A stretch of 64,000 nt of DNA from Patescibacteria group bacterium. GTDB taxonomy: Bacteria > Patescibacteriota > Patescibacteriia > Patescibacteriales > GWC2-42-12. The notes below the pieces were generated by a model. That model was not told the origin of the DNA. It saw nothing but the letters and a program-made list of their open reading frames with translations, and made no database searches. The stretch covers positions 121 to 64,120 of the forward strand of contig JAQTVB010000002.1 of the NCBI GenBank assembly GCA_028707005.1. The letters are read 5' to 3'. Both the position numbers and the translations under genes were made by a program. Shown piece after piece: positions 1,494 through 31,101 of the stretch. Each line of letters opens with the position of its first letter. The stretch's first letter is position 1.

Positions 1494-3323
1494 ATGAATA
1501 AACAGATTAAAAAAATATTAGGATTAAGCATCGGCGAATTATCAACCGCTTGTCTCATGATAGATGGAAAAATTATCGCTTGCGTGTCCGAGGAGAGGTA
1601 TACCCGACATAAGAATGATATGGCTTATCCAAAAAACGCGATTGAATATTGCCTTAAAACCGGGGGTATCAAAGGGGAGGAATTGGATATCGTCGCTATC
1701 GGGACTTTTAATGAGGGTGGTTACGCCCAGGTAACTAAAAAATTTTCAAATTTTTCCATTGAAGATTATGTGAGATCGCAAAGGGAATATTGGTATCCGA
1801 AAATTTATGAAAATAAAAAAGTTAGCTGGCTGGAAGTTTTTAAAGATAAACTTGATTACGATCAATATCCGGGCGGATGGGATAAGATAGATTTTACAAA
1901 CGAAGAAACCGAATGCCGAACCTACAAAGAATTTATCCGCGATATAATATCAAATCACATCGGGGTGGATAAAAGTAAAATAATTCGCCTGGACCACCAC
2001 ACCGCGCATGCGTTTTACGCTTATTTTGGCAGTCCGTTTAGAAATGAAGATTGTTTAATCTTCACGGCCGATGCTTATGGCGATGGATTAAGCGCCACCA
2101 TCAGCACCGTAAAAAACGGTGAAATAAGAAGAATAACCGAGAGTAAAACATTCAATCTCGCCAGGCTTTATCGGTATATAACGCTTTTGCTGGGCATGAA
2201 GCCAAACGAGCATGAGTATAAAGTTATGGGTTTGGCTCCTTATGCCAAGCCATATTACGCGAAGAAACCCTACGAAGTTTTTAAAGAGACCCTTTATGTT
2301 GACGGCCTGGAATTTAAGTATAAGGAAAAGCCGAAAGATCATTACTATTATTTTAAAGAAAAGTTAGAAGGCTGCAGATTCGATGGCATTGCCGGCGGAT
2401 TGCAAAAATATATTGAAGAGATTTTAACCCGATGGGTGAAGAATGCCGTTGGAAAAACAGGAATAAGAAAAGCGGTGTTCAGCGGCGGCATAGCGATGAA
2501 TATCAAGGCAATGAAAAAAATCGCCGAACTTCCGGAAGTGGAAAATTTTTTTGTTTGTCCAAGCGGAAGCGACGAATCTTTGGCGATCGGAGTTTGTTAT
2601 AAAGCAATGTACGATGCCTTGAAAGGAAATAACGGCCGAATTGACGCGACTTCAATAAAGCCCTTGGCTACGGTTTATCTAGGGCCGGAATTTTCCGATC
2701 AATGCGTTAAAAGCATGATTAAAGAGAAGGGTTTGGCCGGGAAATATAAAATTGATGTGGATATTTCGGCTAAAGAAGTGGCGCGCATGCTGGCTGATGG
2801 AAAAATTATCGGCCGGTGCGTCGGCAGAATGGAATTTGGAGCCAGGGCCCTAGGCAATAGATCGATTCTGGCTAACCCTAAATTTCCGAATATAGTTCAA
2901 AAGATTAACGAGAAAATAAAAAACAGAGATTTTTGGATGCCGTTTACCCCCAGTATTCTTTTTGAAAGAGCCAACGATTATCTCGTTAATCCAAAAAATA
3001 TTTTATCACCGTTTATGACCCTGGGGTTTGAAACTACGGGAAAAGCGCGCGAGGATCTGCTCGGGGCTTTGCATCCGGCGGATTTTACCGCTCGTCCCCA
3101 GCTTGTTAAAAAAGAAGACAACCCTGAATATTATCAGCTGATTAAAGAATTTGAAAATATTACCGGCGTGGGAGCGATTTTAAACACCTCGTTTAATTTG
3201 CACGGATTTCCTATCATTATGTCCCCGGCAGACGCCTGGCAGGTATTTGAGAATTCTGGCATAGATTCTGTTTTGTTAAATAAAATTTTGATAACCAAAA
3301 AGCATTATGAAAAAAATTATTAA
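1494..3323 (+). CDS. carbamoyltransferase (NodU/CmcH family)
   Basis: 609 aa. N-terminal ASKHA-like half with LDHHTAHA and a C-terminal NodU-type half (ILNTSFNLHGFPI). Length and order fit O-carbamoyltransferases. Confidence 0.85.
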   Translation: MNKQIKKILGLSIGELSTACLMIDGKIIACVSEERYTRHKNDMAYPKNAIEYCLKTGGIKGEELDIVAIGTFNEGGYAQVTKKFSNFSIEDYVRSQREYWYPKIYENKKVSWLEVFKDKLDYDQYPGGWDKIDFTNEETECRTYKEFIRDIISNHIGVDKSKIIRLDHHTAHAFYAYFGSPFRNEDCLIFTADAYGDGLSATISTVKNGEIRRITESKTFNLARLYRYITLLLGMKPNEHEYKVMGLAPYAKPYYAKKPYEVFKETLYVDGLEFKYKEKPKDHYYYFKEKLEGCRFDGIAGGLQKYIEEILTRWVKNAVGKTGIRKAVFSGGIAMNIKAMKKIAELPEVENFFVCPSGSDESLAIGVCYKAMYDALKGNNGRIDATSIKPLATVYLGPEFSDQCVKSMIKEKGLAGKYKIDVDISAKEVARMLADGKIIGRCVGRMEFGARALGNRSILANPKFPNIVQKINEKIKNRDFWMPFTPSILFERANDYLVNPKNILSPFMTLGFETTGKAREDLLGALHPADFTARPQLVKKEDNPEYYQLIKEFENITGVGAILNTSFNLHGFPIIMSPADAWQVFENSGIDSVLLNKILITKKHYEKNY

Positions 3324-4521
3324 ACGCGTCGGCAACAAAGAGTTGCAATATGTAAAAGAAGTATTGGCTACGAATTTTCGCACTTCGGCCGGATGCAATA
3401 TGATCGGTAGATTTGAAGAAGCTTTTGCTAAAAAATTCGGCGCGAAGTTCGCCGTCGCTCACGTTAACGGAACTTGTACTTTGCATTCCGCTTTATATGC
3501 GGCTGGCGTAAAACCGGGAGACGAAGTGATTGTCCCGCCTTTAACCATGGCTTCAACCACCATGGCCGTTCTCCAGCAGGACGCGATACCGATTTTTGCC
3601 GATGTGATTGAAGATACCTTCGTCATCAATCCGGCCTCGATTGAAAAGTTAATCACGCCGAGAACTAAGGCGATTATAACAGTCGCCTTATACGGCCTTG
3701 CGCCAGACCTGGATGCGATAATGAAAATTGCGCGCAAGCATAATCTCCTTGTGATTGAAGATAACGCTCAATGCTTTTTGGGAAAATATAAAAATCAGCT
3801 GGTCGGAAACATTGGCGATTTTGCCAGTTTTAGTTTTCAAAATAGCAAACACATGTCTTCGGGAGAGGGCGGAGTGGTGCTTACAGACAGGCGGGAATTT
3901 GCTGAAAAATTAAGAAAATTTTCAGTTTTAGGCTATGCCGCGGTGAGCGCCAAAAAAGGAAAAATCGCAAAAAATGATATTCAAAATCCAAATTATGATC
4001 GCCATGTCTCTTTGGGGTATAATTACCGTATGCCCGAATTATGCGCCGCTGTGGCGCTGGGCCAGCTAGAGCATCTTGAAGAATTAGTACAGCGCCGGAT
4101 TGACGCGGCTAACTTATTTTTAAAGCCAATGAAAGGGATAAGCTGGCTGAAGCCGCAGCAAACCCCCGCCGGATGTAGAAATTCCTATTGGTCGCTGGCG
4201 GTGCGGTTGGTTCATCCGCGAATAAAGTGGGCTGATTTCAGGAAAAAATTTATGGAGTTCGGCGGCGACGGGATTTACGCCGCCTGGAAATTGACTTATT
4301 TGGAGCCGATGTTCCAACGTTTGGATTTTTCCGGCAAAGAAATTGTCATCAATAAGTTGTATCAGGGCCAATTGCAGGAATATAAGCGCGGCTTATGTCC
4401 GGTAGCGGAAAAAGTTCAGCCGCAGATTCTAGCCTTCAAAACCAATTATTGGGATTGGCGAAAGGCCTTAAAACAAGCCGAGATATTAAAAAAAACCATC
4501 AAATTTTATGATCAACGGTAA
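3307..4521 (+). CDS. DegT/DnrJ/EryC1/StrS-family PLP-dependent sugar aminotransferase
   Basis: 404 aa. Contains VIEDNAQCF and SFSFQNSKHMSSGEGG (PLP lysine context). Overlaps the upstream gene by 17 nt. Confidence 0.85.
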   Translation: MKKIIKRVGNKELQYVKEVLATNFRTSAGCNMIGRFEEAFAKKFGAKFAVAHVNGTCTLHSALYAAGVKPGDEVIVPPLTMASTTMAVLQQDAIPIFADVIEDTFVINPASIEKLITPRTKAIITVALYGLAPDLDAIMKIARKHNLLVIEDNAQCFLGKYKNQLVGNIGDFASFSFQNSKHMSSGEGGVVLTDRREFAEKLRKFSVLGYAAVSAKKGKIAKNDIQNPNYDRHVSLGYNYRMPELCAAVALGQLEHLEELVQRRIDAANLFLKPMKGISWLKPQQTPAGCRNSYWSLAVRLVHPRIKWADFRKKFMEFGGDGIYAAWKLTYLEPMFQRLDFSGKEIVINKLYQGQLQEYKRGLCPVAEKVQPQILAFKTNYWDWRKALKQAEILKKTIKFYDQR

Positions 4522-5281
4522 AAAGGTGGTAGCCACGATTGAAGCCAGAATGAGCGCTACCCGCTTGCCAGGGAAAGTTTTACTGCCTTTGGCCGGCGCA
4601 CCGGTTTTAACCAGAATAATCGAAAGATTAAATCGAAGCAAATATATTGATGAAATTTGCGTTGCCACCACCGTTAACCCGGCTGATGATGCCATTATAA
4701 AACTCTGCGAAGAAAAAAAGTATGAATATTTCAGAGGCAGTGAAGATGACGTGCTGGCAAGAGTTTTACGAACAGCTGAAATGTGCCGAGCGGAAATTAT
4801 TGTTGAAGGCATGGCCGATAGTCCGCTGGTTGACTGGCGGCAGGTTGATTATTTGCTTAATATGCTGGTAGACGGCAAATATGACTATGTCTCAAATGAA
4901 ATCGGTGAGACTTTTTCTCTAGGCTTTGACATGAGAGTCTTCCCTTACTCGGTTCTTAAAGAAACGGAAAGCCTGGTTACTGATCCGGAGCATCATGAGC
5001 ATGTTGCTTTGTATATTTATACCCACCCGGAAAAATATAAAATTGGGATTTGGAACGCGGCCGGGAAAATGCGCTGGCCGGAACTGCGCTTGACGCTGGA
5101 CACGCCAAAGGACTATGAATTGATCCGTAGAGTTTATGATAATTTTTATCCGCATAATCCCGATTTTTCGGCTGAAGACGTGGTTGACTACTTAAAGGGC
5201 AAGCCCGAATTATACAATCTTAATGCCGATATAAAGCAAAAAAAACCTTATGCCGGTAATATTGAAAAAAATAAAATATAA
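4508..5281 (+). CDS. SpsF-like cytidylyl/glycosyl transferase (CMP-NeuAc-synthetase fold)
   Basis: 257 aa. The N-terminal VVATIEARMSATRLPGKVL motif is typical of SpsF-type nucleotidyltransferases. Overlaps the upstream stop. Confidence 0.65.
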   Translation: MINGKKVVATIEARMSATRLPGKVLLPLAGAPVLTRIIERLNRSKYIDEICVATTVNPADDAIIKLCEEKKYEYFRGSEDDVLARVLRTAEMCRAEIIVEGMADSPLVDWRQVDYLLNMLVDGKYDYVSNEIGETFSLGFDMRVFPYSVLKETESLVTDPEHHEHVALYIYTHPEKYKIGIWNAAGKMRWPELRLTLDTPKDYELIRRVYDNFYPHNPDFSAEDVVDYLKGKPELYNLNADIKQKKPYAGNIEKNKI

Positions 5282-6569
5282 AATAAAAGATGTTTCCGTC
5301 CGGTTTTTAATTAAGCTTAGCTTATTTTTGAATTGGCCCGATCTTGCCGCCCTGGCCCTTTGGCTGGCTGCTAAAACGATGAACCCGAAATGCCGCGGCA
5401 ACTATACGGTTTTAGGCATGGGTAGAAGCGTTTTTATTGACGATATCAGGGCGATGATGACTTACAGCGGGCGCATAAAATATATTGTCATTTGGCGGAC
5501 GTATTTTCAAATAATTTTTTATTATTTTATTAAAGGTTCGGAGGCGGAAAAATTAACGGAGGAAAATTATCACACTCATGATTTCTGTAAACAGGGAAAA
5601 AAAAATTATTATTTATTTTTGAAGAAAATGTTTCCCCGGCTGCGTAAATTAATTAATTTTGACGCGATCTTGTGCGGTAATTTCGGCTACCCCGACCAGC
5701 AGGAAGTTGAAAAAGTGTGCGAGGAAGATAGCATTCCTTACATCGTTTTACACAAAGAGGGGCTGCTGCCCGGCGACGCCCAGGCCACGCGAGCGGATAG
5801 AAACTTAGCCAGTTATAAATTCAGAGGAACCGCGATGCTGGTTTACAGCCAAAAAGTAAAAGACGAACTGCTGAAGAGCGATTTTTCCAATTTTTCCGAT
5901 CTGGCCGAAAATCGATTAATAGTAGTTGGCATGCCCAGATTGGATGAGTATTTTGCCTTAGCGAAAGACAATAAAGATTTAAAAAAGCAAGTCTTGTTTT
6001 TTTCCTTTCATCCGGACGAGAAATTTGTATATTTGATAGATGATAAGGAAAAGATGAAGCGGGCGTATGAACGGACCGCCGCTTTCCATAAATGGGTTAT
6101 TAATTTTGCTTTTAAACATCCCGAAATTGACGTGAAAATCAAAGTAAAAATGGCTCCCCACTATACTGAATATTTGAAGAAAATTTTTAACGATAATTTT
6201 AAAGGCGATATTAAAAATTTAGAGATTATACATTTTAGAGACGCGTTTGATTTAATAAAAAATTCTACCGTAGTGATTTCCCATCTTTCCACTACCTGCC
6301 TGATGGCGATAGCGGCTAATAAACCGCTGATTACGCCTTATTTCGGCGATTTAATTACTGACAGAGAGTGGGATTATTTTACTGATTATCCGGAGTTGGC
6401 GAATTACGCGAAAACAGAGGAGGATCTGGAAAAGCATCTCTTGAATTCTGATAAATACCAGGTTGCCGATTTAGCCGGTAAAAATGAATTCCTGGAGGAT
6501 TTTTTAGGAAATTGCGACGGGCGGTCCAGCCTTAGAGCCGAAAACGCAATAATAAATATAATCAAATAA
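5250..6569 (+). CDS. hypothetical protein, possibly a GT-B/capsule-type transferase
   Basis: 439-aa ORF. The C-terminal half (VVISHLSTTCLMAIAANKPLITPYFGD) resembles Rossmann-type polysaccharide transferases. The start is uncertain (32-nt overlap with the upstream gene). Confidence 0.35.
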   Translation: MPVILKKIKYKIKDVSVRFLIKLSLFLNWPDLAALALWLAAKTMNPKCRGNYTVLGMGRSVFIDDIRAMMTYSGRIKYIVIWRTYFQIIFYYFIKGSEAEKLTEENYHTHDFCKQGKKNYYLFLKKMFPRLRKLINFDAILCGNFGYPDQQEVEKVCEEDSIPYIVLHKEGLLPGDAQATRADRNLASYKFRGTAMLVYSQKVKDELLKSDFSNFSDLAENRLIVVGMPRLDEYFALAKDNKDLKKQVLFFSFHPDEKFVYLIDDKEKMKRAYERTAAFHKWVINFAFKHPEIDVKIKVKMAPHYTEYLKKIFNDNFKGDIKNLEIIHFRDAFDLIKNSTVVISHLSTTCLMAIAANKPLITPYFGDLITDREWDYFTDYPELANYAKTEEDLEKHLLNSDKYQVADLAGKNEFLEDFLGNCDGRSSLRAENAIINIIK

Positions 6570-23118: not shown

Positions 23119-23243
23119 ACCAGTAATATTGTATCATGTTTATTAGCATTAGTCGATATTCTTGAACTTGATTTTTTACCCGATTAATTATATGATTAAT
23201 CTGTTTTTATAATTATTCAGCACGCTCTTGCGTGTCTTTTAAT

Positions 23244-26200
23244 ATGAGTCTATTAGATAAAATTTTTGGCGATCCCAATGAAAAGATGGTAAAAATTTTG
23301 CGTCCGGTAGTGGAGCAAATCAATGCTTTGGAAAAAAAGTACCAGGTCATGAGCGACGAAGAGTTAAGGGTGCAGACCGCGGAGTTTAGAAAGAGATTGG
23401 GAGTGGAAAATACAATCCCCCAAACCCCCTTTATCAAGGGGGCAAATTTCGATGAAATTGAGAAAAAGTTAAAAGAAATTTTGCCGGAAGCGTTTGCCGT
23501 GGTGCGGGAAGCGGCTAAAAGAGTTTTAGGGCAAAGGCATTATGACGTCCAGCTAATGGGCGGCATGGTACTGCATCATGGGCAGATCGCGGAAATGAGA
23601 ACCGGCGAAGGAAAAACTTTAGTGGCGACTTTGCCGGCTTATTTGAACGCTTTGCCCGGCCGGGGCGTGCATGTGATTACGGTTAACGATTATCTGGCCA
23701 AGCGCGACGCCGAGTGGATGGGGCGCGTATACAGTTTTCTTGGATTGAGCGTTGGATGTATAACCCACGAGCAGGCGTTTAAATATAATTCTGTCCGGAA
23801 TGACCAAATCCCAATAACCAATAACCAAACAAATCCCAATGACCAAAATTCAAATGACCAAAATAACCTCCTTAATCCCTCCGCCTCGGCAAGCCGAAGG
23901 CGAGACGGGCCTTTGCAAGGAGGACAAGACGGTAAAATCCCCCTTACCCCCTTTGTCAAGGGGGAACTAACAGAAGTGCCGCGCAAAGAAGCCTATAATT
24001 GCGACGTGCTTTATGGCACGAACAATGAGTACGGTTTTGATTATCTAAGGGATAATATGGCGCCGGATCTTAAATCAATGGTGCAACGGAGCCTGAATTA
24101 TGCCATCGTTGATGAAGTTGACTCAATTTTGATTGATGAAGCGCGCACGCCTTTGATTATCAGTTCGCCGGCCGAGGAATCAACCGATAAATATTTTAAA
24201 TTTGCCGAATTGGTACAACGGCTGGTGGAGAATGAAGATTATAATGTTGACGAGAAAATGCGCGCCGCCACTTTAAGCGAAACCGGCATCGCCAAGATGG
24301 AAAAAATGATGGGCGTGGATAATATTTATACGAGCGGCGGCATTGCCGAAGTGCACCATATTGAGCAGGCTTTAAAAGCGCGGGTGCTTTTCAAGCGCGA
24401 TCGCGATTACGTGGTGAAGGACGGCGAAATTATCATCGTTGACGAATTCACCGGCCGGTTGATGTATGGCCGGCGCTATAGCGAGGGCCTGCATCAGGCG
24501 ATTGAAGCCAAGGAGCGAGTGGAGGTTCAGCGCGAATCGCTTACTTTAGCCACCATCACTTTCCAAAATTATTTCAGAATTTATAAAAAACTCGCGGGCA
24601 TGACCGGAACGGCCGTGACCGAAGCCGAAGAATTTTCCAAAATCTACAAATTGGAAACTGTGGTGATTCCCACAAATCGGCCGATGGCGAGAGAAGATTT
24701 GAATGACTTGATTTATCGGACCGAGATGGGAAAATTCAAAGCCGTAGTGGCCGAAGTCAAGCGCCGCCATGCTATCGGCCAGCCGGTTTTGACAGGCACG
24801 ATTTCCATAGAAAAGAATGAAACATTAGCGGAAATGCTTGCTAGAGAGGGAATTGTGCCGCAGGTTCTGAACGCCAAGCATCATGAGCAAGAAGCGCAAA
24901 TTATTTCTCAAGCCGGCAAGTTGGGAGCGGTGACGATCGCCACTAACATGGCCGGCCGCGGCGTAGATATTATGCTCGGGGGAGTGCCGCCAGATAAATT
25001 TCCGCCCAAGGCGGATCAGCCTCGGGCTGAAAAAATTAGCGAGGCTGAAAAGACAAAAGGTGAGGAATACGAAAAGTGGCGCAAGGAGTATGAAAAAGTC
25101 AAATCTTTGGGCGGTTTGCATATTATCGGCACGGAGCGGCATGAAGCCAGGCGCATTGATAATCAGCTTCGCGGCCGCGCCGGCCGCCAGGGCGATCCGG
25201 GGTCGTCCCAGTTTTATGTTTCCATGGAAGACGACTTGATGCGTATTTTCGGCGGCGACAGAATGAAAAATTTAATGGTTACCTTAAGAGTGCCTGAAGA
25301 TATGCCGATTGAAAATGGCCTGGTTTCGCGTTCCATTGAATCGGCGCAGACCAAGGTGGAAGGCAATAACTTTGATATCAGAAAGCACTTGGTGGAATAT
25401 GACGACGTGATCAATAAGCATCGAGAAACGATTTATCGGAAGCGGCGGGAAATTTTGGAACTGGCGGAAACTTCTGTCATCCCGGGCTTGACCCGGGATC
25501 CAGGTGTGCGTGACACGGAGATGGATTCCGGCTCGGAGGCCGGAATGACAAATAAGGGCGCGTCGGTGGAGGGTAAGAAAACTCTGTCTACCATAATCTT
25601 AGAAATGATCTTGAATGAAATTGAACAGGCGGTGATTTTTCATACGGCCGCCGATAGTTCTAAGGACTGGAATGTTAACGAGATTTTTCAGGTCATGTCC
25701 ACGATTTTTGTGGCGGATCAAAAATTAAAAGAAGAGCTCGCGGCTTTTGTTAAAGACGGCGACCCTTCGGCTGGCTCGGGGCAGGTCAAGCTGGATAAAG
25801 TAAAAGTAAGGACAAAAATCATTGAACACCTGGAAAAATTAATAAGAATCAATTATGAAAAAATCACCAAGCTGGCCGGCGAGGCTGGCATAAATTGGCG
25901 GCAGGTGGAAAAGGCGGTTTTGATCAGATCGATTGATATGCTCTGGATAGAGCATCTGGAAGCCATGGACCACATGCGCCACGGCATCGGCTTAAGAGGC
26001 TATGGCCAGCGCGATCCATTGATTGAGTATAAAAAAGAAGCCTATATTCTGTTTAATGAATTGAATAATTTAATTCAAAAACAAGTGGCATATTCAATTT
26101 TCAAGGTGGCTGATTTGGGCAATTTCGCCGTGCCGACCCTGAAGACGCGGCCGCAGAATTATATCGCGCCGGCAAAAACCATGGAAAAAAATAGCGGTTC

Positions 26201-26360
26201 GTTCGCCGCCTTCAAGCAAGCGGATAATGGAAAAAATAAAAATGACACCGTTGATTTGGTTCATGAAAAAGTGAAAGACGCCAGCGGCCAAAAAGTCGGC
26301 CGCAATGATCCCTGCCCCTGCGGCAGCGGAAAAAAGTTTAAGAAATGCCATGGGGCGTAA
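23244..26360 (+). CDS. secA: preprotein translocase ATPase SecA (long form with several in-frame repeat-derived insertions)
   Basis: Contains MRTGEGKTL Walker A, DEVDSILIDEARTPLIIS, TNMAGRGVDI and C-terminal GRNDPCPCGSGKKFKKCHG zinc finger. I preferred the ATG at 23244 (MSLLDKIFGD). Confidence 0.95.
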   Translation: MSLLDKIFGDPNEKMVKILRPVVEQINALEKKYQVMSDEELRVQTAEFRKRLGVENTIPQTPFIKGANFDEIEKKLKEILPEAFAVVREAAKRVLGQRHYDVQLMGGMVLHHGQIAEMRTGEGKTLVATLPAYLNALPGRGVHVITVNDYLAKRDAEWMGRVYSFLGLSVGCITHEQAFKYNSVRNDQIPITNNQTNPNDQNSNDQNNLLNPSASASRRRDGPLQGGQDGKIPLTPFVKGELTEVPRKEAYNCDVLYGTNNEYGFDYLRDNMAPDLKSMVQRSLNYAIVDEVDSILIDEARTPLIISSPAEESTDKYFKFAELVQRLVENEDYNVDEKMRAATLSETGIAKMEKMMGVDNIYTSGGIAEVHHIEQALKARVLFKRDRDYVVKDGEIIIVDEFTGRLMYGRRYSEGLHQAIEAKERVEVQRESLTLATITFQNYFRIYKKLAGMTGTAVTEAEEFSKIYKLETVVIPTNRPMAREDLNDLIYRTEMGKFKAVVAEVKRRHAIGQPVLTGTISIEKNETLAEMLAREGIVPQVLNAKHHEQEAQIISQAGKLGAVTIATNMAGRGVDIMLGGVPPDKFPPKADQPRAEKISEAEKTKGEEYEKWRKEYEKVKSLGGLHIIGTERHEARRIDNQLRGRAGRQGDPGSSQFYVSMEDDLMRIFGGDRMKNLMVTLRVPEDMPIENGLVSRSIESAQTKVEGNNFDIRKHLVEYDDVINKHRETIYRKRREILELAETSVIPGLTRDPGVRDTEMDSGSEAGMTNKGASVEGKKTLSTIILEMILNEIEQAVIFHTAADSSKDWNVNEIFQVMSTIFVADQKLKEELAAFVKDGDPSAGSGQVKLDKVKVRTKIIEHLEKLIRINYEKITKLAGEAGINWRQVEKAVLIRSIDMLWIEHLEAMDHMRHGIGLRGYGQRDPLIEYKKEAYILFNELNNLIQKQVAYSIFKVADLGNFAVPTLKTRPQNYIAPAKTMEKNSGSFAAFKQADNGKNKNDTVDLVHEKVKDASGQKVGRNDPCPCGSGKKFKKCHGA
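23414..23442. repeat. 29-nt repeat with CCCCCTT/AAGGGGG hairpin inside secA (copy 1)
   Basis: aatcccccaaaccccctttatcaaggggg, translated IPQTPFIKG. Confidence 0.7.
23798..23880. repeat. low-complexity aatgaccaaatcccaat-type repeat tract inside secA
   Basis: Encodes NDQIPITNNQTNPNDQNSNDQNN. The 16-mer aatgaccaaatcccaa (23799-23814) is identical to 41535-41550 in an intergenic palindrome. Confidence 0.7.
23936..23964. repeat. 29-nt repeat with CCCCCTT/AAGGGGG hairpin inside secA (copy 2)
   Basis: aatcccccttaccccctttgtcaaggggg, translated IPLTPFVKG. It is a direct repeat of 23414-23442. Confidence 0.7.
25476..25549. repeat. GTCAT...ATGAC palindromic element inserted in-frame in secA
   Basis: gtcatcccgggcttgacccgggatcc...ggattccggctcggaggccggaatgac has the same architecture as the intergenic element at 31013-31089. 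It is translated as VIPGLTRDPGVRDTEMDSGSEAGMT. Confidence 0.7.
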
Positions 26361-27107: not shown

Positions 27108-27155
27108 AAGTTCGCAATGACGGAGAAATCTGGATTCCCGCCTACGCGGGAATGA
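27108..27155. repeat. fragmentary right arms of the GTCAT/ATGAC palindromic element families
   Basis: ttcgcaatgac followed by ggattcccgcctacgcgggaatgac. No matching left arms are nearby. Confidence 0.5.
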
Positions 27156-27253
27156 CAATCACCTGCCTCTTGATTTAATTTTCAATTTAAATTAAAATGT
27201 AATATAAGAGAAGTAATTACTTATACGCCCGGTTTCGGGCGCTATCTTAATTT

Positions 27254-29452
27254 ATGTCCGATAACATTCTACAGAATTTATTCAACCCCAGCCCCCGCGG
27301 CAAAATAAAGTGGATTTTTGTTTTAATAATTATTTTGGCCATCACCGCCTCGCTGATTGATTTTGGCGATTATTATAATAAGGCGGTGGATAAATTTAAA
27401 ATTCCTTTCCCCAAAGTCAAGGAAATTCCTTTTAGGCTGGGCCTGGATTTATTGGGCGGCACGCAGCTCACTTATCAGGCCGATGTTTCGGCGATCGCGG
27501 CCGCAGACAAGGGGAGCGCGGTGGAAGGCGTTAGAGATGTGATTGAAAGAAGGGTTAATACGTTCGGCGTTAGCGAACCCAATGTGCAGATCAATCGAAC
27601 GACTTCGGGCGATTACCGCATCATCGTGGAATTAGCCGGCATTAAAGATATCAAGCAGGCCATTACCATGATCGGCGAAACTCCGCTTCTGGAATTTAAA
27701 GAGCAGAATACGGAAATCAGAAAAATAACAGATGAGGAAACCAAGCAATTAAATGATTATAATAAAGCGGCGGAAAAGCGCGCTACCGAAGTTTTAGGCA
27801 AAGTAATTTCCGGCGGCGATTTCAGCGCCCTGGCGAAAACTTACAGCGAAGACGCGGCGACAAAAGATCGGGGCGGCGATTTGGGCTGGATTACGGAGCA
27901 GAGTAATTCCGCGATATACAATTTAGCGAGTAAAATCGCGGTGGGAAAAACCAGCGCTGATTTGGAAAAAGTAAGCGGCGGCTATGAAATTATAAAAGTT
28001 GAAGATAAACAGGCAAAAACCGATGCTTTTACCAAGGCGGAAGAAACCCAGGTGAAAGCCTCGCATTTGTTGATTTGCTGGACCGGCATTAGCAATTGCG
28101 AAAGCGGTTTGACTAAAGAGCAGGCTTTGGAAAAAATTACCAGACTGAAGGAGCAGGCGACGACGGCCAATTTTAAGGATTTGGTCAAGCAGAATTCCAC
28201 CGAGCCTAACGCGCGCGATACGGGCGGCGATTTGGGCTGGTTTGCGAAAGATATGATGGTTAAAGCGTTCGCGGACGCGGTTTTCGCGCAGAAAGTAGGC
28301 GCGATTTCCGGTCCGGTGGAAACCGAATTCGGCTATCATCTGATTTATAAGCAAGATGAGAAGAAAATAGAAGAATTGAAAGTAAGCCATATTTTTATAA
28401 AAATCAAAACCGAAGAAGATATCATCGGCAAGCAGAGCGAATGGAAGAATACCGAACTTACCGGTAAGAACTTGAAATCAGCGGCCGTGGAATTTGATTC
28501 CAATAGCGGTTCGCCGGAAGTAGCTTTAACCTTTGATGATGAAGGCGCAAAATTATTTGAGACTATTACCGAACGCAACATAAATAAGCCGGTGGCGATT
28601 TATCTTGACGGCTACGCCATCAGCGTGCCCACGGTCAATGAAAAAATTACCGGCGGCAAAGCGGTGATTTCCGGAAAGTTTAATATTACCGAAGCTAAAT
28701 TGCTGGCGCAAAGGCTGAACGCCGGAGCTTTACCGGTGCCGATTAACCTGGTTAATCAGCAAACCGTGGGCGCGAGCCTGGGGCAACAATCGGTGGCAGA
28801 CAGCCTTAAGGCCGGCTTAATCGGTTTTATAATCATCGCCTTATTTATGATTGTTATTTATAGATTGCCCGGGTTGATGGCGGTTCTGGCCTTAGCGGTT
28901 TATAGCTTGCTGGTTTTTGCCTTATTTAAGATCGGTTTTTCCATGGCGGCCTTGGTTTTGGTCGGGGCTTTTCTGATTATCGGCATCACGGTGAATGGTT
29001 GGTTTCTGGTATTTGCCTTTTTGAGTTATATCGTTTTGTATTTTATCGGCGGTTTGGCGCCGGTTACTTTAACTTTAGCCGGCTTGGCCGGAGCCATCGT
29101 TTCAGTGGGCATGGCCGTGGATGCCAATATTTTGATTTTTGCCCGTTTACGCGAAGAAATTATCAATGGCAAACCGCTATCTTCAGCCTTGGACGACGCT
29201 TTTAAGCGCGCCTGGCCGTCAATCAGGGACAGTAATTTCAACACGCTGATCACTTGCTTGATTTTGATCATGTTCACTACCAGCGCGGTCAAAGGTTTTG
29301 CCGTGACCTTGGGCTTGGGCGTTATTATTTCCATGTTCACCGCGATTTTCATCACCAGAAATTTCTTGAGCTTGATTCCGCCGACTTGGCTGGAAAAGCG
29401 GCACGCTTTGATCACGTCGGTGAAAGCGCCGAAGCCTTCGGATAATGAATAG
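27254..29452 (+). CDS. secD: protein-export membrane protein SecD carrying two parvulin-type PPIase domains in its periplasmic head
   Basis: 732 aa. SecD N-terminal TM, LGLDLLGG and C-terminal 6-TM core. Residues ~155-395 contain two copies of the parvulin signature (GGDLGWI... and GGDLGWF...FGYHLI). Confidence 0.85.
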   Translation: MSDNILQNLFNPSPRGKIKWIFVLIIILAITASLIDFGDYYNKAVDKFKIPFPKVKEIPFRLGLDLLGGTQLTYQADVSAIAAADKGSAVEGVRDVIERRVNTFGVSEPNVQINRTTSGDYRIIVELAGIKDIKQAITMIGETPLLEFKEQNTEIRKITDEETKQLNDYNKAAEKRATEVLGKVISGGDFSALAKTYSEDAATKDRGGDLGWITEQSNSAIYNLASKIAVGKTSADLEKVSGGYEIIKVEDKQAKTDAFTKAEETQVKASHLLICWTGISNCESGLTKEQALEKITRLKEQATTANFKDLVKQNSTEPNARDTGGDLGWFAKDMMVKAFADAVFAQKVGAISGPVETEFGYHLIYKQDEKKIEELKVSHIFIKIKTEEDIIGKQSEWKNTELTGKNLKSAAVEFDSNSGSPEVALTFDDEGAKLFETITERNINKPVAIYLDGYAISVPTVNEKITGGKAVISGKFNITEAKLLAQRLNAGALPVPINLVNQQTVGASLGQQSVADSLKAGLIGFIIIALFMIVIYRLPGLMAVLALAVYSLLVFALFKIGFSMAALVLVGAFLIIGITVNGWFLVFAFLSYIVLYFIGGLAPVTLTLAGLAGAIVSVGMAVDANILIFARLREEIINGKPLSSALDDAFKRAWPSIRDSNFNTLITCLILIMFTTSAVKGFAVTLGLGVIISMFTAIFITRNFLSLIPPTWLEKRHALITSVKAPKPSDNE

Positions 29453-29475: not shown

Positions 29476-29694
29476 ATGAAATCACCAGAAATTGGCACAT
29501 CAGCCACTGAAAAGTTAGTGGTTGGATCAAGGGTCGAAGGCTTTCATAATCAAGTGATTGCCAGGGGGAAAATAATTGATGAAAAACTTGCAGAAACTGG
29601 AGGCCGTCAATTTAGAGTTCGGTGGGATAATCCTAGTCATGGCGAAGCTGATTGGTTTAATGAAAGCGAATTAAAGGATGTCAGCAATCAATAA
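29476..29694 (+). CDS. small hypothetical protein between secD and secF
   Basis: 72-aa ORF. It may have an SH3/Tudor-like beta fold by composition. No motif recognised. Confidence 0.35.
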   Translation: MKSPEIGTSATEKLVVGSRVEGFHNQVIARGKIIDEKLAETGGRQFRVRWDNPSHGEADWFNESELKDVSNQ

Positions 29695-29701
29695 TCAATT
29701 T

Positions 29702-30604
29702 ATGACTAACTTCAAAATAATTCAAAAACGCAACATTTGGCTAACGATTTCCGGAATTTTATTCGCAGTATTCGTGGCAGCCCTATTTTTATGGGGTTTT
29801 AAGTACGGCATTGATTTTACCGGCGGCAGTTTATTGGAATTAACCTACGAGGGCCAGCGGCCGACAGTAGAGCAGGTTGAATCAAGCTTGGCGGATTTGA
29901 AATTAAGCAGTTTCATTATTCAGCCGGTCGGCGAGCAGGATATGCTTTTGAAGTTTCAGGAAACCATGGAGGAAACTCATCAAGCAATTTTAAGCAGATT
30001 GGCCAATTTGGCGAAGCAAGATAATACCACTTTTCTAGAGCAGAGATTTGATTCGGTCGGCCCGTCAATTGGCGCCGAGCTAAAAGTAAAATCTCTCTGG
30101 GCCATATTTTTCGCGTTGATAGCCATGCTGATTTACATCACTTACGCTTTTAGAAAAGTTTCTCGGCCGGTAGCTTCCTGGAAATACGGTCTGTCCGCGA
30201 TTTTGGCCATGTTCCATGATGCGGTCATTACTATGGGCGTATTCGCCTTTTTAGGGCATTTCTACGGCGTGGAAATCAATACGCCCTTTGTGGCCGCGCT
30301 GTTAACCGTTATTGGCTATTCAATACATGATACGATCGTGGTCTTTGACCGCATCCGCGAGAATTTGCCAAAAAGCGATTTGGATTTTGAGGGAACGGTA
30401 AATGTAAGCTTGAACCAAACCATCGGGCGTTCGCTCAATACTTCCATGACCGTACTGTTGGTGTTGCTGTCTATTATTATTTTCGGCGGCGCCAGCATCA
30501 GAACTTTTGCCCTGGCTTTGGCAGTCGGAATTTTCATCGGCACTTATTCGTCTATTTTCGTAGCGCCGCCGCTGCTCGTCATCTGGGAAAAGTGGAAAAA
30601 GTAG
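29702..30604 (+). CDS. secF: protein-export membrane protein SecF
   Basis: Contains GIDFTGG, a 6-TM core and HDTIVVFDRIREN. The ATG at 29702 avoids overlap with the upstream small ORF. Confidence 0.9.
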   Translation: MTNFKIIQKRNIWLTISGILFAVFVAALFLWGFKYGIDFTGGSLLELTYEGQRPTVEQVESSLADLKLSSFIIQPVGEQDMLLKFQETMEETHQAILSRLANLAKQDNTTFLEQRFDSVGPSIGAELKVKSLWAIFFALIAMLIYITYAFRKVSRPVASWKYGLSAILAMFHDAVITMGVFAFLGHFYGVEINTPFVAALLTVIGYSIHDTIVVFDRIRENLPKSDLDFEGTVNVSLNQTIGRSLNTSMTVLLVLLSIIIFGGASIRTFALALAVGIFIGTYSSIFVAPPLLVIWEKWKK

Positions 30605-30936: not shown

Positions 30937-31012
30937 TGAAAAAAATTTTGACAAAGCAGGCGATTTTAAGGTAAACTAAAGGAGTGATTTGCCATTGCGA
31001 ACGACTTTTTTT

Positions 31013-31089
31013 GTCATTCCCGCGAAAGCGGGAATCCAGAGTTGTATGCTCTAGCCATGTTTCTGGATCCCCGCTTTCGCGGGGATGAC
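31013..31089. repeat. GTCATTCCCGCGAAAGCGGGAATCC...GGATCCCCGCTTTCGCGGGGATGAC palindromic element in the mreB leader
   Basis: Each arm is itself a hairpin (CCCGCgaaaGCGGG). A TTGACA-18-TAAACT promoter-like pair lies upstream at 30948-30977. Confidence 0.75.
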
Positions 31090-31101
31090 AATACAACTTT
31101 A

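Follow-up and report, generated by a model that had tools for sequence, protein, structure and literature searches.

In a 64,000-nucleotide stretch of contig JAQTVB010000002.1 (assembly GCA_028707005.1) from a Patescibacteria group bacterium of the candidate phyla radiation (CPR), hereafter called the window, we analyzed a secD gene whose product carries two parvulin-type domains in its P1 domain. This 732-amino-acid SecD, parvulin insert included, is encoded by one uninterrupted open reading frame (ORF) at 27254..29452 on the + strand, as are its domains and the neighboring genes secA and secF described below. We consider it rather likely that the protein is a SecD with a SurA-like tandem parvulin module, in which the second domain (D2) would be nested in a circularly permuted first domain (D1), and that this arrangement couples protein folding to translocation.

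Two parvulin domains are inserted between the P1 base and the P1 head of SecD

The protein encoded by this ORF is indeed a SecD, a component of the Sec translocon. It matched the secD model TIGR01129 with 337.2 bits, compared to a curated equivalog-domain cutoff of 244.4, in two stretches with the insert between them, and Foldseek matched its predicted structure to the SecDF structures 5xan, 5yhf, and 3aqp with E values of 1e-15 to 1e-18. The protein has the SecDF fold and the SecD layout, with P1 base and P1 head between the first transmembrane helix (TM1) and the TM2-6 bundle, and by homology of the TM1 topology to SecDF structures, the P1 domain lies outside the cytoplasm. Over the whole protein, Pfam detected SecD_1st (aa 91-152), two Rotamase/Rotamase_3 stretches (E 3.6e-39), SecDF_P1_head (aa 398-495), and SecD_SecF_C (aa 604-706), which bears out the initial annotation of this gene as a SecD with two parvulin-type peptidyl-prolyl isomerase (PPIase) domains in P1.

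The insert is located in the connector from the last strand of the P1 base (PLLEFKE, aa 144-150) to the P1 head, which begins at aa 398. Window positions 27716-28438, to which the insertion had been assigned, correspond to aa 155-395. On its N-terminal side, the insert is preceded by the first part of the P1 base (SecD_1st, 27524..27709; PF21760, E 1.9e-17), whose last strand PLLEFKE appears as strand E146-151 in the AlphaFold2 (AF2) model; on its C-terminal side, it is followed by the head subdomain (28445..28738; PF22599, E 2.2e-30, matched from profile position 17). Besides PLLEFKE, all other peptides that had been quoted for this region were present in the translated ORF, namely FSALAKTY...GWI (aa 190-213), GGYEIIKV (aa 242-249), FKDLVK...AVF (aa 307-344), GPVETEFGYHLI (aa 353-364), VSHIFIKI (aa 377-384), and ELTGKNLKSAAVEFD (aa 401-415). 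Measured from the PLLEFKE strand to the head motif T.L.G..L, the anchor spacing is 250 aa in the window SecD compared to a median of 41 aa in insert-free representatives, so that the earlier estimate of about 240 extra residues was roughly right. SecD proteins with a single parvulin have a spacing of about 126-186 aa, and those with two parvulins have a spacing of about 231-270 aa.

Each of the two domains was detected above the Pfam gathering score when scanned alone, with Rotamase_3 E values of 4.8e-15 for D1 and 3.6e-26 for D2. The bit scores for PF00639 and PF13616 were 56.6 and 54.1 with D1 and 92.4 and 75.7 with D2, at cutoffs of 22.5 and 21.7, respectively. In the AF2 model of the SecD, which was built on an alignment of 66 sequences, the predicted local distance difference test (pLDDT) was about 85-95 over aa 160-390 and moderate in the SecD core. 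The predicted TM-score (pTM) was 0.38, and therefore the folds of the parvulin domains are credible but their mutual arrangement is not. A recent tandem duplication of D1 and D2 was also considered and is unsupported, as the two domains recognized each other only with an independent E value of about 3e-4.

The active site is conserved in D2 and partially conserved in D1

D2 comprises aa 265-371 (28046..28366) in the order β1-α1...β4, as delimited by Rotamase_3, the alignment to Pin1, Foldseek, and conservation. In the model, D2 adopts the canonical parvulin order β1-α1-α2-α3-β2-α4-β3-β4, with a four-stranded sheet and four helices, and Foldseek superimposed it on the catalytic domains of Pin1, SurA-P2, and Ess1 over 111-114 columns (111-112 for Pin1 and SurA-P2) with a root-mean-square deviation (rmsd) of 2.3-2.6 Å and TM-scores of 0.80-0.82. 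With residues 51-163 of 1pin as reference, H271, E317, L327, M335, F339, and H362 of D2 are equivalent to H59, C113, L122, M130, F134, and H157 of Pin1. H271, L327, M335, F339, and H362 are invariant in the 66 sequences, and E317 is found in 64 of them, a pattern that can hardly be accounted for unless the catalytic site of D2 is under selection. Judged from these residues, D2 is probably an active PPIase. The β1-α1 loop of D2 contains Cys275 and Cys282, which occur together in 92 sequences, are both absent in 19, and never occur singly (0 sequences). This perfect co-variation points to a disulfide bond and agrees with a location outside the cytoplasm.

D1 comprises aa 155-254 (27716..28015) and was identified by Rotamase_3, by residue mapping to Pin1 and SurA, and by a pLDDT of about 88-93. 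It extends from α1 to β4 and lacks an N-terminal β1, as its match to parvulin profiles begins only at position 10-16 (at 16 with Rotamase_3). D2 is followed by a trailing β1-type strand, ELKVSHIFIKIK (aa 373-384, 28370..28405), which is apparent from strand E373-383 of the AF2 model, from the re-ordering of Pfam matches described below, and from relatives, and which contains His379 in 62 of the 66 sequences. When this strand is counted as part of D1, the parvulin active-site set of D1 is partly kept: His379, L210, and the Ser-x-Asp motif (S198, D200) are retained, the position of the second histidine (H157 in Pin1) is occupied by Glu245 in 65 of 66 sequences, and the Met130 equivalent is replaced by Ser or Asn. 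As with SurA P1 and the parvulin domain of PpiD, the main role of D1 is probably to bind substrate or to serve as a scaffold.

The same two precedents raise the question of whether the entire parvulin module could be a non-catalytic holdase or docking scaffold, for which isomerization would be irrelevant. SurA is known to exert its chaperone function independently of its PPIase activity, and the exchange to Glu245 at the His157-equivalent position of D1, the loss of its Met130-equivalent pocket residue, and the strong degeneration of D1 in distant double-parvulin forms would all fit such a role. However, the full active-site set of D2 is invariant in the 66 sequences, with the two exceptions at E317, and a D2-type domain is present in all double forms. 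We therefore regard a purely non-catalytic module as unlikely and favor a catalytic D2 alongside a binding or scaffolding D1.

D2 is most likely nested in a circularly permuted D1

The initial annotation had listed VSHIFIKI as a possible third parvulin remnant. The peptide is indeed a real conserved element, but it represents a canonical β1 positioned after β4 and not the remnant of a third domain. A third, degenerate parvulin after D2 was rejected, as the parvulin-like part comprises only 12-14 residues that correspond to profile positions 1-10 (β1), and the SecDF_P1_head match begins some 14 residues further on. Sequence and model together indicate that VSHIFIKI is most likely the displaced β1 strand that completes D1.

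The single-parvulin SecDs were informative in this respect. All of those examined have the order LEFKE, α1...β4 (FG[FYW]HII), short loop, V[KR]ASHILIK, and head, and their parvulin domain is thus circularly permuted, as the β1 motif with the catalytic His comes after β4. MAFFT aligned these single forms to α1 of D1, α2-β4 of D2, and the trailing strand, which indicates that double and single forms differ by one parvulin unit. When the trailing strand was placed first in silico, the coverage of PF00639, which had begun at positions 8-11, extended to position 1, and the score increased by 3.8 bits for D1, by 9.7 bits for D2, and by 5.6 bits for P0139, a single-parvulin protein whose Rotamase_3 score rose as well, by 10 bits. 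In the control, in which the native preceding SecD strand was placed first, there was no such extension.

These data leave two ways of distributing the strands. In the nested arrangement, D2 would use the internal strand 265-274 as its β1, and D1 would be completed by the trailing strand. Alternatively, the insert could be a tandem of two permuted parvulins, in which D1 would be completed by strand 265-274 and D2 by strand 373-383. Single-parvulin SecDs carry exactly such a permuted unit, which would make a duplication the simplest evolutionary route, and the β4-to-β1 loops of both units are similar in length to those of the single forms. However, the Foldseek alignments of D2 to Pin1 and SurA-P2 include β1 at the low rmsd given above, and this full-length match to canonical parvulins assigns strand 265-274 to the β1 position of D2 in the model. 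The secondary structure assignment (DSSP) shows strand E360-371 followed by E373-383 with one non-strand residue between them, a break that is too short for the hairpin turn required by a tandem and that fits the nested pairing. If H271 lies opposite H362, residues 265-274 would pair with 359-368, and if E245 lies opposite H379, residues 243-254 would pair with 370-381. The histidines point in the same direction: the internal β1 His is kept in 16 of 16 double forms, whereas the trailing-strand His is retained in only two of them, both with a recognizable D1, and has been lost in the other 14 although the other catalytic residues of D2 are invariant. In the single forms, the trailing-strand His is kept in all four cases (4/4). 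We therefore consider two permuted parvulins in tandem improbable. Most probably, D1 is circularly permuted and encloses the canonical D2 within its β4/β1 hairpin.

A possible coupling of translocation and folding

The P1 head of SecDF binds the emerging preprotein and swings between the I and F forms in a proton-driven manner (3AQP, 5XAN). Extracytoplasmic folding factors have been found close to this site in several systems. The Escherichia coli holotranslocon, consisting of SecYEG, SecDF, and YidC, binds SurA, and all AlphaFold models place SurA P1/P2 on the P1 head of SecDF (PMC9987972). PpiD/YfgM is located at SecYEG (PMC9643414). The SecYEG-SecDF translocon of Mycoplasma pneumoniae is covered by a dome of PrsA-like parvulin lipoproteins; the dome protein Mpn444 crosslinks to SecD, and a putative substrate density touches its catalytically intact PPIC domain. 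The contacts of SurA, PpiD/YfgM, and the Mycoplasma proteins at the translocon make a foldase at the SecD connector plausible.

We thus propose that an unfolded secretory protein exits SecYEG and would be captured by the P1 head of SecD, that the proton-driven swing of the head would pull the chain out, and that the fused parvulins beside the head would bind the emerging chain and isomerize prolyl bonds during its release. The bacterium is reported to be monoderm, and at its surface, where no outer membrane encloses a periplasm, folding could in this way be coupled to translocation at a fixed stoichiometry of 1:1.

Several aspects weigh against this proposal. We infer the PPIase and chaperone functions of the insert from residues and fold, and its nested topology from strand lengths, profile re-ordering, and motif order. 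Where the parvulins lie with respect to the head was not reliably predicted, as the low pTM indicates. D2 has Glu317 at a site that is Cys in Pin1 and Asp in most bacterial parvulins, and D1 is poorly conserved in distant relatives and may have only a structural role. The insert as a whole is somewhat less conserved than the SecD core (mean identity of 62-68% versus 78-81%). Finally, many CPR SecDs are insert-free (73 of 150 representatives), so that SecD can function without the fusion.

One could also imagine that the insert does not act on substrates at all and rather regulates SecD, for instance by gating the transition of its P1 head between the I and F forms, or tethers it to components of the cell wall or S-layer. 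The base-head region serves as a hinge in SecDF structures, and the insertion into the base-head connector is close to it; the uncertain domain placement (pTM 0.38) would leave room for such roles. Yet the active site of D2 is conserved, SecDF of other bacteria interacts with free SurA/PrsA-like proteins, and, to our knowledge, parvulin domains are peptide-binding folding factors in every characterized extracytoplasmic case. A regulator or anchor is hence very unlikely in our opinion, and we maintain that the module would act on emerging chains.

How secretory proteins pass from the Sec channel to chaperones outside the cytoplasm is a current research question. Domain fusions are common in general, and this fusion lies beside the SecD head and is conserved across many CPR lineages, which provides independent evolutionary support for such a hand-off. 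The topology of the module, which appears permuted and nested, is unusual. As a tentative extension, which we consider possible rather than probable, the Sec motor and a foldase may form one machine in several large CPR lineages: the head swing would deliver the chain to a holding outer D1 and a catalytic inner D2, pulling, holding, and isomerization would be mechanically coupled, and free PrsA would have been replaced. On this reading, the fusion would be "Rosetta-stone" evidence that the contact of SecDF head and parvulin, which is proposed for E. coli SurA and seen for the Mycoplasma dome, is an ancient and general hand-off site, and the module would also be the first circularly permuted, domain-in-domain parvulin. 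In any case, the SecD-parvulin protein offers a single-polypeptide target of fixed stoichiometry for structural and biochemical work on coupled translocation and folding.

The fusion is widespread in the CPR

A homology search covering 5.8 billion proteins resulted in 7560 homologues at E ≤ 1e-10. Pfam inspection of the best 120 of these (59-84% identity) revealed SecD together with Rotamase domains in 120/120. The sequences originated from NCBI, JGI, ENA, and Logan assemblies, and the named ones belonged to Candidatus Falkowbacteria, Patescibacteria, and Parcubacteria. At least one parvulin was detected by clade hidden Markov models in 77 of the best 150 cluster representatives at 50% identity, and Pfam confirmed ten diverse ones. 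Variants of the architecture were single-parvulin SecDs of about 560-620 aa and parvulin-containing SecD-SecF fusions of about 1015-1119 aa, the latter from Peregrinibacteria or Peribacterales where named. A parvulin-bearing SecD fused to SecF, of about 1030 aa, is also encoded by ORF 2485-5574 of the Magasanikbacteria contig MFQZ01000010.1 (L011).

For a scan of GTDB, with one genome per species, the alignment of the insert plus flanks served as query, and 80 loci were kept. Parvulin and SecD are fused in 21 of them, and together with the loci L001-L003, this amounts to 24 loci with both in the same ORF. The named fused loci belong to Patescibacteria, Parcubacteria, Magasanikbacteria, Uhrbacteria, Buchananbacteria, Komeilibacteria, and Gracilibacteria, whereas free proteins of the SurA, PpiD, or PrsA type are encoded at the remaining 59, which come from Bacteroidota, Ignavibacteria, Proteobacteria, and further phyla. 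A free parvulin with a strong D2 match (L062) was found on a 190-kb contig, JACRKF010000033.1, that is labelled Candidatus Woesearchaeota archaeon (DPANN).

Seven of the fused loci carry non-CPR labels, namely five Gammaproteobacteria, one Binatia, and one Lysobacteraceae (L007, L008, L015-L018, and L021). Their insert-free SecD cores are 60-66% identical to those of named CPR loci (Parcubacteria, Magasanikbacteria), which is the same range as between CPR lineages. An occurrence of the fusion outside the CPR was rejected on the basis of these CPR-type cores, and we read the seven labels as taxonomy errors; the respective metagenome-assembled genomes are probably mislabelled or the contigs mis-binned. 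The locus titled Candidatus Binatia (L007, DATJFD010000021.1) has a GC content of 64%, and the genome titled Lysobacteraceae has 30%. On the available sampling, the fusion appears to be CPR-specific and to occur in several CPR classes.

A frameshift, which had been named as a possible objection, or a mis-assembly or chimeric contig that had joined a prsA-like gene to secD has a negligible probability, as the ORF is continuous, the SecD parts on both sides of the insert belong to the same domain, and the identical architecture recurs in independent assemblies, with more than 120 proteins from NCBI, JGI, ENA, and Logan and 24 species genomes.

Many close homologues (P0016, P0017, P0022, P0024, P0025, and others) are named "peptidylprolyl isomerase" and not SecD by NCBI. 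SecD is thereby obscured in the respective genomes, and metabolic reconstructions of CPR bacteria could list PrsA as present too often. PrsA annotations have been reported in a comparative study for members of all CPR classes (PMC9166423), some of which may represent this fusion. No stand-alone parvulin was found among the 618 six-frame ORFs of the 64-kb window, the part of the genome that was covered. The idea, raised with the initial annotation, that the fusion makes up for separate chaperones absent from a reduced genome is unsupported.

Other parts of SecD and the gene neighborhood

Outside the insert, TM1 was assigned to about aa 18-36 (27305..27361) by a hydropathy peak and AF2 helix 14-34, and TM4-TM6 to aa 604-706 (29063..29371) by the SecD_SecF_C domain (PF02355) and invariant columns. 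The latter region includes the motif GMAVDAN, whose Asp623 in TM4 is invariant in the 66 sequences and which we take to be the conserved TM4 Asp of the proton pathway in Thermus thermophilus SecDF. TM3 and TM4 are separated by a hydrophobic, clade-specific insertion (aa 562-603, 28937..29062; about 41 aa), which was recognized by its absence from the alignment consensus and by motif spacing. AF2 renders it as two helices with low pLDDT, and it is probably an extra transmembrane hairpin with which the topology is preserved. In the window SecD, the spacing from YR.PG to GMAVDAN is 83. Of 120 close homologues, 54 share this value, nine have a spacing of 89 with unrelated sequence, and 47 have the canonical 42.

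The gene order at the locus is secA, two small ORFs, secD, secF, and mreB. It is identical in L001, the closest relative found, and the order secD-secF recurs in relatives. The partner subunit SecF (308 aa, 29678..30604) matched TIGR00966 with 289 bits at a cutoff of 160. Upstream, secA (1042 aa, 23232..26360) was identified by its ORF and by the syntenic gene of L001 with SecA Pfam domains, and this neighbor gives the secD locus its Sec context. An ORF of 72 aa between secD and secF (29476-29694, +) overlaps the secF start and has a weak Chromo-like Pfam match (E 1.5e-3). It is unlike the 81-aa ORF at the equivalent position in L001, and tblastn gave no match in 83 related loci; it is probably not a conserved gene.

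A short palindromic repeat of the GTCATTCCCGCGAAAGCGGGAATCCAG type was found at 27129-27158, about 100 bp upstream of secD, and again as an inverted pair upstream of mreB (31011-31040 and 31062-31091). Two similar hairpin-like palindromes lie in frame within secA at 25479-25550, where they encode IPGLTRDPGVRDTEMDSGSEAGMT (SecA aa 750-773). The pattern resembles that of repetitive extragenic palindromic (REP) elements, possibly with an in-frame insertion in the essential gene secA. SecA has 1042 aa in the window versus 997 aa in L001. It contains a low-complexity N/Q-rich stretch at aa ~197-245 (window 23820-23966; NNQTNPNDQNSNDQNN), and the motif IP.TPF.KG occurs twice, at aa 62 and aa 236.

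Comparison with known systems

With SecDF of T. thermophilus and Deinococcus radiodurans (3AQP, 5XAN, 5YHF), the window SecD shares the N-terminal transmembrane helix, the P1 base and head, the resistance-nodulation-division (RND)-like transmembrane bundle, the TM4 Asp, and a neighboring secF gene. It differs by about 210-240 extra residues, the two parvulins, in the base-head connector, and its clade by the hydrophobic TM3-TM4 hairpin (about 41 aa). We also examined whether the long SecDF family NF009585 (993-aa model) carries the same insert. This was rejected, as the whole protein aligned to the model (aa 257-587) but the insert alone had no match at E ≤ 0.001.

The insert matched NCBIfam models of PrsA, SurA, PpiD, and PpiC, in each case far below the cutoff and in the parvulin parts only. 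PpiD/YfgM also places a membrane-tethered parvulin at the translocon exit (PMC9643414), and D1 had weak matches to PpiD, both to its model and to its parvulin structure 2kgj. However, PpiD is anchored by a transmembrane segment of its own and combines large chaperone domains with only one parvulin, which is inactive, whereas the window parvulins are tethered by SecD and one of them has catalytic residues. The score with the PpiD model NF008054 was 66 bits at a cutoff of 493 and covered the parvulin region only.

The Bacillus lipoprotein PrsA and the Mdp protein Mpn444 of the Mycoplasma dome resemble the window SecD in having an extracytoplasmic parvulin at the Sec exit in the absence of an outer membrane. 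D2 is PrsA-like in sequence, and PrsA models were the top NCBIfam matches of the insert. However, the window SecD has neither a lipoprotein anchor nor a chaperone domain of the trigger-factor/SurA type, whereas PrsA and the Mdps have both and are proteins separate from SecD. NF002827 (PrsA) gave 93.8 bits at a cutoff of 343 in the parvulin part only, and the N-terminus is TM1 of SecD and not a lipobox signal.

The insert also resembles E. coli SurA. It is colinear with the P1-P2 part of the structure 1M5Y (residues 169-368, E 2e-18), and the original comparison with PrsA/SurA was therefore apt. Both proteins have two parvulins in tandem, an atypical one followed by a canonical one whose active site is intact. 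The differences are that the insert lacks the N-terminal chaperone domain and the C-terminal tail (91 bits versus a cutoff of 394 with the SurA model NF008038, aligned only over the P1-P2 part at profile positions 192-388 of 431, and no Pfam match to SurA_N), that the window parvulins are covalently part of SecD, that D1 has no N-terminal β1 and appears circularly permuted, and that the host is a CPR bacterium, reportedly without an outer membrane. As a SurA-like P1-P2 module without the chaperone domains of SurA, PrsA, and PpiD, the insert is not a member of any of these families.

Searches of the full-text literature, whose coverage excluded most subscription-only papers, yielded no report that describes a SecD-parvulin fusion or a parvulin with circular permutation. 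The fusion is thus apparently undescribed, although it is visible in automatic annotation under a wrong name. By analogy to the systems compared here, the SecD-parvulin protein of the CPR looks like a covalent version of the contacts that free SurA/PrsA-like proteins make with the translocon.

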